A stretch of 64,000 nt of DNA from a virus (Duplodnaviria > Caudoviricetes): positions 1 through 64,000 of the IMG/VR virus record IMGVR_UViG_3300035422_000089, one strand, 5' to 3'. Under the pieces are notes generated by a model that was not told the origin of the DNA, ran no database searches, and worked only from the letters and a program-made list of their open reading frames with translations. Made by a program: the position numbers and the translations under genes. This document shows, one piece after another, positions 182 through 63,125 of this stretch. The number at the start of each line of letters is the position of its first letter. The stretch's first letter is position 1.

Positions 182-418
182 ATGAATATGAATATTGCAA
201 CATATCAAACAACACCAGAAAATCATGGAGAAGGAACCTATTTCTTTACAGATTGTGGACACAATATGTATTCTATAAGAGATAATATGGCATATCATGG
301 TTGTTTGTGTCCTGGCTGTTTATATAAAGGGATACAGACAATATTGTATATTAGAGGTTCAGAAAAAGCAAATAAGTATTGGAATGAGAAACAGAAGAAA
401 ATGGAAATGAATGATTGA
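182..418 (+). CDS. Hypothetical protein, Cys-containing
   Basis: ORF on the coding strand; Cys cluster (CLCPGC). Confidence 0.6.
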   Translation: MNMNIATYQTTPENHGEGTYFFTDCGHNMYSIRDNMAYHGCLCPGCLYKGIQTILYIRGSEKANKYWNEKQKKMEMND

Positions 419-435
419 TTTTATTGGAGGATATT

Positions 436-1245
436 ATGGGAAAGAAGAAAATAGAAAAAGAATTGACTAAAGAGGAAAAATTGCAACAGGAAAAGGAAAG
501 AGGAATAGAGCAAATACAGAGGGAACTACCTTTTATAAATACGCCATCATATTTTTTTAATGTGGGTGATAAAGTAAGTTATGGCGCGATTAAAGAAAGT
601 GTTGTTGAAGATATTTTGTATGATGGAAAAGTATATGTTTTAAAGTGCGTTGCGACTAATAATAATTATGGACGTCCTTATGATTATGAAACTTATCGTG
701 TTACATCATGGACAAATGTAAGACCGATTTGTACTGATAATGATACTAATTTCTCTGAAAACCAGGATGTACGATTGGACTACTATAATTCAACTATAGA
801 AAGTCTGTTGAGAAGGAATTATGCTTTTGGAATAGACTTTGATCCAGATTATCAGAGAGGATATGTTTGGGATGCGAAGGACAAGGAAATGTTATTGGAT
901 AGCATTTTCAAAAATATAGATATTGGAAAGTTTGTATTGATTCATATATCAGATGAAGAATGGCATAAGAGAGGATTAGGTTATGAAATACTTGATGGAA
1001 AGCAGCGTTTAAGCACTCTCATTGAGTTTTATGAGAACAAATTAGCATACAAAGGAAAGTACTATAATGATTTGAGTGGAATGGATAAGATGGCTTTTAC
1101 AGAACACCAAGTTGCTGTCGCAGAAGTAAGGGAAACGGACAAGAAGACAGTGTTAAAATATTTCTTAATGCTTAACAGGACAGGAAAATCTATGGATGAA
1201 TCACATCTGGAAGAAGTAGAAAAGATGCTGGATAGTATGAAATAG
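436..1245 (+). CDS. DUF262 (ParB/Srx-like, GmrSD N-terminal) domain protein
   Basis: PDYQRGYVW, ILDGKQRL and FLMLNRTGK motifs; GGAGG SD before ATG 436 (track start 415 is over-extended). Confidence 0.8.
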   Translation: MGKKKIEKELTKEEKLQQEKERGIEQIQRELPFINTPSYFFNVGDKVSYGAIKESVVEDILYDGKVYVLKCVATNNNYGRPYDYETYRVTSWTNVRPICTDNDTNFSENQDVRLDYYNSTIESLLRRNYAFGIDFDPDYQRGYVWDAKDKEMLLDSIFKNIDIGKFVLIHISDEEWHKRGLGYEILDGKQRLSTLIEFYENKLAYKGKYYNDLSGMDKMAFTEHQVAVAEVRETDKKTVLKYFLMLNRTGKSMDESHLEEVEKMLDSMK

Positions 1246-1278
1246 GCAGTTGAAAACTTGATTTTATTGGAGGTTTTA

Positions 1279-1728
1279 ATGGAAGATAATTATACTGGCG
1301 ATATGATTCTGATAGATAGATTATCAGAATTTTATCCTGTTAATAGTTGGTCATGGAATGAAGGCGAGGTTGTAGAACTTGATGACATTGCTTGTGCAAT
1401 TCATGAAGGACATCCAGAGGAATCAGAGCCGTTTGGTGATACATGGAAACATCCTTGTATGGAGAATAAATCTACTGAGTGGCATATAGGAAGGATTTTA
1501 TATTTTATAAAACATCCAGAGGAAATTAGAGATATAGAGGTTGATAATCTATACAGTGGAGATTATATTTTCCCTGTACCTTCAATCATTGATGGAAACC
1601 ATAGATTTATGGCAGCTATGTGGTTACAGGATCAAGGAAAGATGGGAAAAGTTCATTGTAGATATGGTGGTAGAATGGATTTGTTGGATTATCTGGTTGG
1701 GAAAACTGATGTGTGCCCTGATGAATAG
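1279..1728 (+). CDS. ParB/Srx-fold protein
   Basis: IIDGNHRFMA motif; GGAGG SD before ATG 1279. Confidence 0.6.
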   Translation: MEDNYTGDMILIDRLSEFYPVNSWSWNEGEVVELDDIACAIHEGHPEESEPFGDTWKHPCMENKSTEWHIGRILYFIKHPEEIRDIEVDNLYSGDYIFPVPSIIDGNHRFMAAMWLQDQGKMGKVHCRYGGRMDLLDYLVGKTDVCPDE

Positions 1729-1741
1729 GCGAGGTGGTTAT

Positions 1742-60272: not shown

Positions 60273-60617
60273 ATGAGCATTTTTATATGTGAAAAGTGTG
60301 GGAAACTAGACAATACAGCTTGCAGCAATAATTATCATCACGCAAATATGAATAAATATAGAGAACAGAAAGGCAAAAAGATAGATATATGTTATAAACC
60401 AGAGTTTTTATACTTTGAAAATCACGCATGTTGTTCCGATTGCTGCGAAGGCGTTACATATTCTGATTTTTCTGGAGTTTTACATAAAAGGAATATTGAT
60501 ATACAGAATAAAAGTCATTGGACAAAATTTGGAAAAGAAAAACTTCTTGAATGGGAATCAAGAAATGACGGATCTATGATGAATGCTACAGAATTTTTTA
60601 AGAATAATAATATTTGA
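60273..60617 (+). CDS. Hypothetical Cys-rich protein
   Basis: CEKC, C.N..H and CCSDC. Confidence 0.6.
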   Translation: MSIFICEKCGKLDNTACSNNYHHANMNKYREQKGKKIDICYKPEFLYFENHACCSDCCEGVTYSDFSGVLHKRNIDIQNKSHWTKFGKEKLLEWESRNDGSMMNATEFFKNNNI

Positions 60618-60650
60618 GCAAGAAAATCGCAATTTTAACGGAGGTAACAG

Positions 60651-60989
60651 ATGTATTTATTATTAAGCGATAAGGATAAAATAATCCTTGATACGGTGCA
60701 AGAACTAGAAATGGGAGGATTTCAACTTGACAAATACAAAATTTATAACTTGTCTCCTATAGATCCTTCGGAACTAATCAATGATGGACAAATCAGAGAT
60801 ATGGTATGTCATATTCTTAGGGGTGATCAAATGAGTAAAAATGAACTTATTGAGAAAGTTATTACTAATATTGATATCCCTAAATCGAAAGTTTCTAAAG
60901 TAATAACAAAAATGAAGAAAGAGAAAGTTATATATGATATAGAAGATTGGAATTATTTAGGTGAACGGATTATAGGCATGGATAAATAA
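60651..60989 (+). CDS. Hypothetical protein, possible winged helix
   Basis: GGAGGT SD; C-terminal wHTH-like pattern. Confidence 0.55.
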   Translation: MYLLLSDKDKIILDTVQELEMGGFQLDKYKIYNLSPIDPSELINDGQIRDMVCHILRGDQMSKNELIEKVITNIDIPKSKVSKVITKMKKEKVIYDIEDWNYLGERIIGMDK

Positions 60990-61059
60990 AAAAGTCTTTT
61001 ACCCCAATTAGAAATATGGGTTACTAATTAAATGTGTGTTTCAATGAAGGAGAATGTGA

Positions 61060-63060
61060 TTGGATAAAGTAAAGAGAATAAAAGAATTAACACAGAAACT
61101 TAATCAATACAGAGATTCGTATTATAACGACTCTGTATCAGAAATTTCAGATCATGAATATGATGAGTTATTCGATGAATTAAAGCAACTGGAAGAAGAA
61201 ACAAATATTGTAATGGCTAATTCACCAACTCATACAGTTGGATATGAAGTTAAATCAAAACTTGAAAAAGTAAAACATTCGCATCCCATGTTGTCGCTTG
61301 ATAAAACAAAGTCAGTAGACGATTTAAAGAAATTTGCTGGTGATAAAAATTGTCTGCTTATGTGTAAGATGGACGGATTAACTGTATTACTTACTTATGA
61401 GAATGGCGAGTTAATTCAGGCAGAGACTCGTGGAAATGGTGAAGAGGGAGAAATCATAACCCACAACGCAAGAGTGTTTGAAAATATTCCAGCACATATA
61501 GATTATACAGGGCATTTGGAAGTCGAAGGCGAGGCTATTATTACATACGGTGACTTTGAGATAATTAATAGCAAACTTCTTGAGAATGAAAAATATAAGA
61601 ACACACGGAATCTTGTAAGCGGATCAGTTAGACAATTAGATAGTAATATTGCAGCACAGAGGCATATCAAATTTATTACTTGGAAGGTTCCAAATATAGA
61701 AGACAAGATTAAAAGTGATAATTCTATTTTATTTAGATTAAATTATATCAAAGATTTAGGGTTTGATATTGTTCCGTTTTATTCATACACGAATTGTTCA
61801 TCAGATAAAGAAAATATTAATAATATGATAATTTCGTTGCAAGATAGAGCAAAGTATTTAGGTTATCCGATAGATGGACTTGTTGTGACATATGATGATA
61901 TTTCATATGGAGAGTCATTGGGAACAACAGGACACCACCCAAAACATTCTTTGGCATATAAGTTCTATGATGATATTTATCCTACAAGATTGTTAGATGT
62001 AGAATTTACGATGGGCAAGACGGGTGTTTTAACTCCAACAGCAGTATTTGAACCAGTAGAGATTGATGGCACAATGGTTGAAAGAGCTTCACTACATAAT
62101 ATTTCAATTATGAAAAGTCTTGGAATCGTGTCAAAGTATCAAGAAATTGGTGTTTATAAGGCGAATATGATTATTCCTCAGATAGAGTATGCAGAAAAGA
62201 TGGATTGTGTAGCCGTAGAAGAAGTTATTGATATACCTACTATTTGTCCTATATGTGGTTCAAAAGCAGAAATTATTAAAGATAATGATACAGAAATTCT
62301 CATATGCACTAATTCAGCTTGTAAGGGTAAACTGCTTGGTAAACTATCACATTTTGTAAGTAAGAACGCAATCAATATAGATGGATTATCAGAGCAGACA
62401 CTACAGAAATTTATTAATTTAGGATGGTTAAATTCATTTAGAGATATTTATTATCTATCAGAATATAAAAAAGAAATGTATAAACTTGATGGTTTTGGTA
62501 AGAAGTCAGTAGACAAACTGATAGAAAGTATTGAAAAAAGTAGAAATACTACATTGGATAGATTCATTTATGGACTGTGTATTCCACTTATAGGTAGAAC
62601 TGCAAGTAAAGAAATTGCAAAATCATGTGCTAATGGTAATGTTGGTCAGTTTATTACAATTATGAGTTTAGAGGGTAATCAACCGTTTATTGGACTCGAT
62701 GGATTTGGAAAAGAAATGTGTAATTCAATCGTTCATTGGTGGATATATAATAAGCAAAATTTTTATGAATTGATCGAAGAATTCAACTTTAGAGAGTCAG
62801 TTAATAATGGTAATGTAAAGCAAGTGCTAGAAGATAAGATTTTTGTAATTACAGGAAGTTTAAAGTTTTACAAGAATCGCGATGAATTGGTTAATGTGAT
62901 TGAGAGGAATGGCGGTAAAGTTTCTGGATCGGTTAGTGCTAAGACAAGTTACTTAATCAATAATGATGTCGCAAGTACATCAGGGAAAAATAAAAAAGCC
63001 CATGATTTAGGAATACCAATCATAAGCGAAAACGAATTTATTCAGATAATCACATCTTAA
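61060..63060 (+). CDS. ligA: NAD-dependent DNA ligase
   Basis: YYND..SD.EYD, HPMLSL, KMDG, TRGNG, DGLVV, zinc finger CPIC, HhH and BRCT (FVITGS). Confidence 0.95.
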   Translation: MDKVKRIKELTQKLNQYRDSYYNDSVSEISDHEYDELFDELKQLEEETNIVMANSPTHTVGYEVKSKLEKVKHSHPMLSLDKTKSVDDLKKFAGDKNCLLMCKMDGLTVLLTYENGELIQAETRGNGEEGEIITHNARVFENIPAHIDYTGHLEVEGEAIITYGDFEIINSKLLENEKYKNTRNLVSGSVRQLDSNIAAQRHIKFITWKVPNIEDKIKSDNSILFRLNYIKDLGFDIVPFYSYTNCSSDKENINNMIISLQDRAKYLGYPIDGLVVTYDDISYGESLGTTGHHPKHSLAYKFYDDIYPTRLLDVEFTMGKTGVLTPTAVFEPVEIDGTMVERASLHNISIMKSLGIVSKYQEIGVYKANMIIPQIEYAEKMDCVAVEEVIDIPTICPICGSKAEIIKDNDTEILICTNSACKGKLLGKLSHFVSKNAINIDGLSEQTLQKFINLGWLNSFRDIYYLSEYKKEMYKLDGFGKKSVDKLIESIEKSRNTTLDRFIYGLCIPLIGRTASKEIAKSCANGNVGQFITIMSLEGNQPFIGLDGFGKEMCNSIVHWWIYNKQNFYELIEEFNFRESVNNGNVKQVLEDKIFVITGSLKFYKNRDELVNVIERNGGKVSGSVSAKTSYLINNDVASTSGKNKKAHDLGIPIISENEFIQIITS

Positions 63061-63125
63061 ATGTAAAAATATTAAATGTAACTCGTAAACCTATCAAATA
63101 AAATTCAAATTTCAACGGAGGATAA

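Follow-up and report, generated by a model that had tools for sequence, protein, structure and literature searches.

Short palindromes with slot-specific centres, candidate recombination sites between the accessory genes of an SPbeta-like gut phage

Cassette exchange as engineered with heterospecific lox or FRT sites and Cre or FLP makes use of sites in which two identical inverted arms enclose a short spacer. Variants of the spacer do not cross-react, so that DNA is exchanged with a partner carrying the same pair of sites and is not deleted. We analyzed a stretch of phage DNA of 64,000 nucleotides (positions 1 to 64,000 of the IMG/VR virus record IMGVR_UViG_3300035422_000089; hereafter the window), in which a 16-bp palindrome, TRAAA-N6-TTTYA, recurs at the junctions between accessory genes. 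By analogy, engineered lox/FRT exchange would be its nearest functional counterpart, and the pdif modules of Acinetobacter and the PeSL elements of T4-type phages would be the nearest natural ones. Like pairs of lox/FRT spacers, the 29 to 52 sites of a phage genome have centres that are all different and that are shared by partner genomes in the same order. In contrast to lox/FRT, the phage array is natural, has dozens of addresses instead of two, arms of 5-6 instead of 13 bp and a centre of 6 instead of 8 bp, and its enzyme is only a candidate. We consider it fairly probable that the copies of this motif are heterospecific phage recombination sites, probably for a phage tyrosine recombinase, and that they recombine by matching of their centres.

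The pdif (dif) modules of Acinetobacter plasmids also consist of many sites with a 6-bp centre that flank accessory modules shuffled between replicons, but these sites are 28 bp long, have two different 11-bp arms, alternate in orientation and depend on the host XerC/XerD (PMC6449649, PMC13141974), whereas the phage sites comprise 16-18 bp, are symmetric and phage-specific, have slot-specific and ordered centres, and are accompanied by no protein that passes the XerC/XerD models. The phage arms are A-rich just before the centre and T-rich just after it, and these arm ends resemble the centre-proximal ends of single-recombinase Xer sites, namely difH (AGTTATGAAAA) and difSL (TTTCCGAAAA, TTTTCTTGAAA) (PMC5357621); a Xer/dif layout fits the 6-bp centre with breakpoints at its borders, but only 5-6 bp per arm are conserved, against arms of 11 bp around a central region of 6-8 bp. 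The PeSL (promoter-early stem-loop) elements of T4-type phages recur between genes in hyperplastic regions of these large phages, where they mark the ends of small genes that were inserted, deleted or replaced; they are composite promoter-terminators of tens of bases and are thought to recombine by homology (PMC2839356, PMC4122927), whereas the motif described here has 16 bp, no promoter hexamers, no stable stem-loop, a unique centre per slot and islands of identity of 16-22 bp. Integron arrays (PMC9892861) share with the window the division of gene units by inverted-repeat sites and a tyrosine recombinase nearby; they differ in IntI, in folded attC sites (imperfect inverted repeats of about 55-140 bp with extrahelical bases, recombined as single strands) and in an attI site and Pc promoter, none of which was seen here, where the sites behave as addresses.

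A repeated intergenic element has been described in the same phage group. SPBRE of SPbeta is bound by MrpR (YopR), a repressor with a catalysis-dead tyrosine-recombinase fold (PMC10516654). The element measures 15 bp (approximately AAATACAAAWAATATGTATA) and lies in early promoters, with about ten bound copies; the ten SPbeta promoters bound by MrpR in chromatin affinity purification sequencing (ChAP-seq) share it between the -35 and the -10 and do not share TAAAA-N6-TTTTA, the SPbeta form of the palindrome, which occurs at 36 separate sites. In the published MrpR data all peaks are at SPBRE. In the literature searched we found no prior description of the junction palindrome, and neither the SPbeta review nor the hybrid-phage study mentions it.

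Abundance, composition and distribution of the palindrome

The window is the first 64 kb of a viral contig of 73,669 bp with a G+C content of about 31% and genes almost all on the plus strand, and it belongs to an SPbeta-like phage of the Lachnospiraceae type from the mouse gut. It contains 26 exact copies of TRAAA-N6-TTTYA, against 3.7 expected and at most 8 in any shuffle; a preliminary description of the window, made from the sequence alone, had listed the same 26 at the same coordinates. Together with 19 one-mismatch sites, against 16 in the initial hand count, they mark 45 junctions; roughly 40 had first been announced. Of the 29 exact copies in the whole contig, 27 are intergenic. Dinucleotide shuffles of the intergenic DNA, which amounts to approximately 7.2 kb, give 0.33, and intergenic copies with at most one mismatch number 46 against 5.8 in such shuffles. 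The comparison with shuffled intergenic DNA that had been proposed as a check is therefore positive. The junction sites are listed below in window coordinates; no strand is assigned to them.

408-423, one-mismatch, TGAAT GATTGA TTTTA, stop codon TGA of the upstream gene within the core
1251-1266, exact, core ACTTGA
2108-2123, one-mismatch, core GTCTGA
2539-2554, exact, core TTCGAT, its own TAA being the upstream stop
3253-3268, exact, core TCCGGT
4347-4362, exact, core TGTTGC
5595-5610, one-mismatch, core TGCTGT
6566-6581, one-mismatch, core GGCGGG
7172-7187, exact, core TTCTAG
8694-8709, one-mismatch, core GTGAAA
13103-13118, exact, core GCCGCA
16023-16038, one-mismatch, core CTAACA
16754-16769, exact, core AATTCA
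18039-18054, exact, core AATTGA
18461-18476, exact, core TTTCCG
18857-18872, one-mismatch, core CGAAGG
19469-19502, tandem pair, exact (core GAAACA) and one-mismatch at 19487 (core ACTCGT), followed by a terminator-like hairpin
23231-23246, exact, core CCCACG
23584-23599, one-mismatch, core TCTGCG
24947-24962, one-mismatch, core CTTGCA
28891-28906, exact, core TCGAGA
29109-29124, exact, core AATCTG
31388-31403, exact, core AGCCAA, brackets the small gene in reverse orientation (31454-31618) on its left
31696-31711, exact, core ATTTTG, right bracket of the same reverse-oriented unit
33283-33298, exact, core CATCGG, 16 nt past the stop and 176 nt before the next start
34244-34259, one-mismatch, core CAACTC
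34672-34687, exact, core TTTTGC
35009-35024, one-mismatch, core CCAGAG
36513-36528, one-mismatch, core GGTTAA
36813-36828, exact, core TCTTGG, core also in the relative G009 with unrelated flanks
38514-38529, one-mismatch, core GCACGA
39367-39382, one-mismatch, core CCGAAA
40229-40244, exact, core GCGTTC, island of identity with the relative G008 limited to the motif
41017-41032, exact, core TTCTTA, left flank in common with G008, right flank soon diverging
42597-42612, one-mismatch, TAATA ATTTTA TTTTA, left edge of the conserved replication module
55234-55249, exact, core TAGGAC, right edge of the conserved replication module, after the Gp157 gene
56943-56958, exact, core GATAGG, only the motif and a few bases in common with the relative G007
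58242-58257, exact, core CGCTCG, slot order as in G007
59812-59827, exact, core CCACGC, identity with G008 of exactly 16 bases
60241-60256, exact, core CAAGTC, slot order as in G007
60622-60637, one-mismatch, core TCGCAA
61028-61043, one-mismatch, TTAAA TGTGTG TTTCA, also in G007 with an unrelated left flank
63099-63114, exact, core TTCAAA, follows the gene for the NAD-dependent ligase; G007 and G008 have a different right arm and a different right flank

When the spacer was varied from N0 to N14 in intergenic DNA, N6 gave 27 copies and every other spacer between 0 and 3. The motif logo shows one additional W on each side and a C-rich centre, (W)TRAAA-N6-TTTYA(W), with a family consensus of TGAAA-N6-TTTCA and an arm-to-arm spacing of 11 bp in the palindrome. 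The core was described from the outset as often richer in GC, and its GC fraction of 0.46 exceeds both that of the 10-nt flanks (0.35) and that of the contig (0.31). At most junctions the site is located between the stop codon and the next Shine-Dalgarno sequence, which follows directly after the motif. The left arm is the source of the stop codon at only 14 of the 48 junction sites of the contig; elsewhere it begins 3-22 nt, and sometimes more, beyond the stop. An origin of the motif as a by-product of a stop codon, an AT-rich spacer and a Shine-Dalgarno sequence, already doubted in the preliminary description, is ruled out by the intergenic shuffles and the spacer scan. Readings as a promoter (sigma-70, extracytoplasmic function sigma, sigma-54 or single-subunit RNA polymerase) were dropped, because the Shine-Dalgarno sequence follows directly and sequence inspection revealed no second hexamer at a usable distance from the motif.

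The variable bases of the two arms are anti-correlated over the 48 contig junction sites: TAAAA occurs with TTTCA (A..C) 17 times and TGAAA with TTTTA (G..T) 14 times, while the symmetric forms A..T and G..C occur 8 and 5 times (Fisher p=0.014), which makes 13 Watson-Crick pairs versus 21.9 expected under independence. The relatives G001-G003 carry mostly symmetric TGAAA..TTTCA. The flanks of the sites display neither extended symmetry nor covariation, the conserved unit being 16-18 bp. The RNA folds of ten sites, at 0 to -3.4 kcal/mol with z-scores near 0, are no better than those of shuffles.

Convergent genes, too, can have a site between them (55234), and the small reverse-oriented gene at 31454-31618 is surrounded by sites; its bracketing by two exact copies (31388 and 31696) had been noticed earlier. 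Of the two sides of the larger reverse gene (55267-56208), just one has a site. At 19469-19540 the two tandem sites are 18 nt apart and are followed by a terminator-like hairpin with a 13-bp stem and a gap of 200 nt. None of the eight internal junctions of the block 42628-55165 has a site, the one-mismatch matches there all being inside genes, as was claimed for the junctions of this block at the start.

Outside the window, four relatives contain 47, 52, 39 and 19 copies versus 9, 9, 11 and 5 in the controls, and complete relatives of about 180 kb have 39-52 copies each. The 4.9-Mb genome of a Lactonifactor host has 92 copies versus 93 in the control, and these are clustered in its prophage contig. 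Within a complete relative the virion arm has no more sites than chance would give, and the sites are concentrated in the early/accessory arm, a co-oriented stretch of 65 kb. A de novo scan for 5-mer inverted repeats, which took in G000, G001-G004, G009 and G010, ranked TGAAA-N6-TTTCA first in eight of the nine relatives; the remaining one, G006 (122 kb), has a DNA polymerase region that is 91% identical, shows no enrichment of the palindrome, and carries a decayed copy of the 55234 site (TGAAA TGGGAC CCTTA). The motif is a trait of this phage family and not of the host.

Ordered centres and breakpoints at the motif

The comparison of the contig with nine relatives was performed on ten genomes brought into the same orientation. 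Within each genome the cores are all different (29/29, 52/52, 47/47 and 39/39), a uniqueness that is not significant alone, as about 0.5 coincidences are expected. Between genomes, we found 54 pairs of sites with the same core while both 80-nt flanks are unrelated, versus 11 for a control with reverse-complemented cores, and 26 of the 54 lack any protein-level similarity within 600 nt on either side. The order of same-core pairs was concordant in 172 cases versus 7 discordant (p=3e-42), and the islands of identity consist of the motif plus 0-5 nt, for 16-22 bp in all. The window and G007, for instance, have the series TAGGAC, GATAGG, CGCTCG, CCACGC and CAAGTC in common and only one homologous gene between those sites, and core CAAACG occurs with three combinations of flanks. 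With centres that hold their order beside differing genes, the copies resemble numbered crossover points at which genes would be swapped, and the fixed order across genomes disfavours free cassette movement. A search for cassettes that had moved between slots of the ten genomes found homologues for few accessory segments, and the matches were mostly chance ones inside genes. Two features of arrays for recombinase-mediated cassette exchange can be recognized in these genomes: identical arms with a spacer unique to each site, and, as a comparative footprint that suggests it, exchange between sites of the same spacer in which the spacer was kept and the flanks changed.

The same pattern is present in two cultured phages of Bacillus. 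SPbeta (NC_001884) and phi3T (KY030782) contain 36 and 34 copies of TAAAA-N6-TTTTA, versus 0-8 for other spacers, and share 24 same-core pairs, all 276 comparisons of their order being concordant. Four of these pairs have two unrelated flanks and eight have one, the reverse-complement control giving 1; a same-core site with differing flanks is, for example, that with core TGCATA (SPbeta 69424, phi3T 62423). The system is therefore open to study in a model phage.

The junction at 55234 gives the most detailed view of a breakpoint. The window and three relatives have everything through TGAAA-TAGGAC-TTTYA in common and then continue with wholly different DNA in each. An IMG/VR scan for this address recovered 20 sites that match it in left flank and motif. 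When G000, G008 and G009 are included, 22 genomes share the left flank and the site and fall into 16 unrelated classes of right flank. In 111 of the 120 comparisons between classes the identity ends 0-2 bases past TTTYA, and the Y base travels with the right flank. Directly after this address the window carries a reverse-oriented gene for a 313-aa DUF4062 protein (55267-56208, minus strand); the slot looks like a cargo hot spot, because unrelated DNA is found there in the 15 other flank classes. A long conserved hairpin (GTCTATATATAGTGG...CCACCATATATAGGC) is located at 55163-55220, after the Gp157 gene and just before the site, and elements similar to it (CTATATATAG / ACTATATATTGTG) recur after sites in relatives; the hairpin and these elements may be a terminator or a promoter/operator element of the family.

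Over the ten genomes, the ends of BLAST homology blocks favour motif offsets 13-16 and their starts offsets -4 to 0. Pairs of sites with only the left flank in common agree in the right-arm Y in 10 of 18 cases (9.9 expected), and those with only the right flank in common agree in the left-arm R in 8 of 13 (7.9 expected). This chance level of identity on the unshared side places the joins between the R/Y base and the core. The expectation that breakpoints of gene gain and loss between related phages would fall at the site was therefore borne out, homology starting and stopping at the borders of arm and core. The left 40 kb of the window have no close relative among the sampled genomes, so that the sites there are judged by analogy; an IMG/VR scan for one of them (13103, core GCCGCA) gave 87 matches, 0 of which had either flank in common.

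Contigs from metagenomes and metatranscriptomes of four mouse-gut runs were also placed on positions 44001-64000. The DNA contigs, from two metagenomes, bridged all sites in this interval and had no joints at them. Among the metatranscriptome contigs one ends at 55251 and two others start at 55222 and 56944, in each case at a site; as RNA ends cannot be read from contigs, these borders are no more than a hint, be it of a transcript border or of a branch in the graph.

Candidate recombinases and competing explanations

In the model that we favour, the motif would be a recombination site of minimal size, used as a duplex, that an SPbeta-like phage carries between its accessory genes. Its inverted arms, which are identical, would each be occupied by one protomer of a recombinase encoded by the phage, most likely of the tyrosine type, and strand exchange would occur at both borders of the 6-bp centre. 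As each junction has its own centre, the sites within one genome would be heterospecific, and the DNA between them would be neither deleted nor inverted. A co-infecting relative, or a prophage resident in the host, would have the same centre at the corresponding junction and could recombine with it whatever the flanking genes, so that diverged phages would re-assort their accessory genes slot by slot with gene order kept, while the replication and virion modules, having no sites, would stay intact as blocks.

The preliminary description reported no recombinase in the window, which is literally correct; the rest of the contig encodes a 393-aa tyrosine recombinase at contig positions 71999-73180, 8 kb past the window end. 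This protein is probably the lysogeny integrase, because an orthologue with 91% identity is located at the end of a provirus record. Tyrosine recombinases are encoded by the contig and by all nine relatives examined, and each complete genome has three: one of the 393-aa kind, a YomM-like protein in the virion arm (34% identity to SPbeta YomM), and a small protein of 251-349 aa, with little beyond the catalytic domain, in the motif-rich arm. The small early-arm and the YomM-like groups retain the catalytic residues R..HxxR..H..Y, and proteins of both groups are candidates for the site enzyme. A serine recombinase as the common enzyme was rejected, being present in only 2 of 5 genomes. A search of IMG/VR for distant relatives of the small recombinase returned near-identical relatives only. 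The XerC, XerD, XerS and XerA models gave the five recombinases tested 23-84 bits, versus cut-offs of 220-335, and with the NCBIfam integron-integrase models the relatives' recombinases scored 19-30 bits. Given that no model was passed, that serine recombinases are not universal and that no site adjoins a candidate gene, we infer the enzyme, as we do its chemistry, the need for core identity, and selection for recombination over regulation.

Several observations weigh against recombination sites of this kind. For a tyrosine recombinase, arms with no more than 5-6 conserved bp would be short. The candidates are diverse, BLAST revealing no single recombinase family in all genomes, and no sites were found beside their genes as they are in XerS/XerH modules; the box II of YomM and YopP from SPbeta is HxxK when the proteins are aligned with MAFFT. 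Among pairs that share only the core, the R/Y bases were co-inherited with it about half of the time, so that some crossovers must have occurred at the outer edge of the arm, and since some shared flanks have different cores (L1-CAAACG versus L1-GTCAAG), core identity is no absolute requirement. Of 54 replacements or indels in one close genome pair, 8 are bounded by sites on both sides, 13 on a single side and 33 on neither; for a second close pair, with 51, the numbers are 9, 16 and 26. The sites account for only part of the differences in gene content. MrpR is a recombinase-fold protein that acts only as a repressor (PMC10516654), and of the 16 junctions in phi3Ts-SPbeta hybrids obtained in the laboratory, 15 coincided with ordinary homology (10.1101/2020.05.06.055103). 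The non-homologous junction "after yosA" could not be placed on the site at SPbeta 116415.

The main rival explanation, which we regard as rather unlikely, is that the motif is primarily the site of a dimeric phage regulator (operator, roadblock or nucleoid-type), possibly bound by a recombinase-fold protein as in MrpR/SPBRE, and that, being conserved at every junction, it doubles as a short homology linker for relaxed homologous recombination, without site-specific chemistry, by a module of Sak4-like annealase, RecJ-like nuclease and Gp157. A phage-wide regulator site had been the alternative offered in the preliminary description. A palindrome with one helical turn between its half-sites has the classic layout of an operator, R/Y bases without hairpin-type covariation fit a protein dimer on duplex DNA, and an inactive tyrosine-recombinase fold is the master repressor in SPbeta-like phages (PMC10516654); the window encodes a Sak4-type recombination module, the 16-22-base islands could be microhomology, with crossovers scattered between the inner and outer arm edges, and the phi3Ts x SPbeta hybrids made in the laboratory arise mostly by homology. 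However, an operator gives no reason for an unrecognized 6-bp centre to survive the replacement of both neighbours, nor for 16 right neighbours to be joined at the same nucleotide. A length of 16 bp is far below the usual substrate of annealases of the Red-beta/Rad52 type, sites occur between convergent genes and after terminal genes with nothing downstream to regulate (55234, 31388), and the known MrpR operator is a different sequence inside promoters. BLAST found no MrpR homologue in the relatives.

The two remaining explanations are more remote. The motif could act in RNA, as a hairpin or as a signal for processing, stability or translation coupling in long early transcripts, with breakpoints that merely follow gene borders; its position between stop codon and Shine-Dalgarno sequence at most junctions, its confinement to the co-oriented early/accessory arm, the predominance of perfectly complementary TGAAA..TTTCA in relatives and, as a weak hint, the metatranscriptome contig borders at 55251 and 56944 would all suit such a role. 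We nevertheless consider it very improbable: pairing covariation of the R/Y bases is absent, Watson-Crick combinations being below expectation and A..C the commonest, the ten folded sites have no stability to speak of, sites adjoin reverse-strand genes and lie between convergent ones, and ordered conserved cores beside unrelated genes are left unexplained. An RNA hairpin is not supported, and neither is the label "integron-like" of the first description. A true integron-like system, in which an integron-type integrase acting on folded, attC-like sites would cut out single-gene cassettes as circles and return them at an entry site, would agree with the abundance of small genes that look promoterless and have an inverted-repeat site after them, with the presence of tyrosine recombinases, and with integrons reported in phages (PMC9892861), but we find it barely credible. 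The best score of a recombinase, that of the contig, is 38 bits against an integron-integrase cut-off of 265; the sites have 16 bp and no attC-like bulged hairpin, no single attI-type site was seen, and the cores are slot-specific and collinear and do not travel with cassettes, nor do the DNA contigs of the two metagenomes have joints at sites. With IntI and attC absent, the array is not an integron.

Gene context and significance

The conserved replication module of the window is free of junction sites:

42628-55165, plus strand, SPbeta-type replication/recombination module without junction sites (Pfam matches, relatives, SPbeta gene order)

This block encodes a yorF-like protein and, by Pfam, a Sak4-like AAA_24 protein, a DnaB-type helicase, a RecJ-like DHH protein, a DNA polymerase, a RecD2-like helicase and Gp157, in a gene order that matches yorF-yorL of the Bacillus phage SPbeta. 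Its DNA identity among relatives is 74-96%, while the DNA on either side is mostly unalignable; a megablast search of the module against a phage collection gave 0 matches. The other window genes with Pfam matches include three DNA methyltransferases and the NAD-dependent DNA ligase, and the accessory arm (11403-14568 and 26602-28830) encodes a GmrSD-like nuclease, a LAGLIDADG endonuclease with helix-turn-helix domains, and a 742-aa kinase-phosphatase-RNA ligase fusion of the Pnkp/Rnl type. For window positions 9433-9490 and 9768-9841 we note, in a gap of 486 nt, two GAAC-N4-GTTC palindromes, which are LexA/Cheo-box-like and overlap a TTGACA...TATACT promoter, followed by a tRNA gene (Rfam 66.6 bits). 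The related IMG/VR records are phages or proviruses of 95-180 kb, one of them a prophage in Lactonifactor sp. and one a complete genome of 180,169 bp with terminal repeats, and DNA of the window was found in mouse-gut metagenomes from 12 studies.

How unrelated phage genes are exchanged with clean borders is an old question, in which random illegitimate joins followed by selection are set against dedicated linkers. The present finding adds base-resolved, statistically strong footprints of a dedicated junction element with its centre as an address, and its presence in the tractable Bacillus subtilis phages SPbeta and phi3T makes direct genetic tests possible. We tentatively propose that SPbeta-like phages, from Bacillus to gut Lachnospiraceae, may carry a natural genome-wide array of about 35-50 heterospecific sites whose 6-bp overlap serves as a slot address, and that a dedicated phage tyrosine recombinase, possibly an orphan of the YomM/YopP type or the small early-arm protein, may use it to swap non-homologous cassettes between co-infecting phages and prophages while leaving gene order undisturbed. 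If this is true, the array would give physical form to the "linker" sequences that the modular theory of phage evolution postulates. If the enzyme is found, this would be a natural multi-address cassette-exchange system, and it would explain the fast turnover of defence and counter-defence cargo in large temperate phages.

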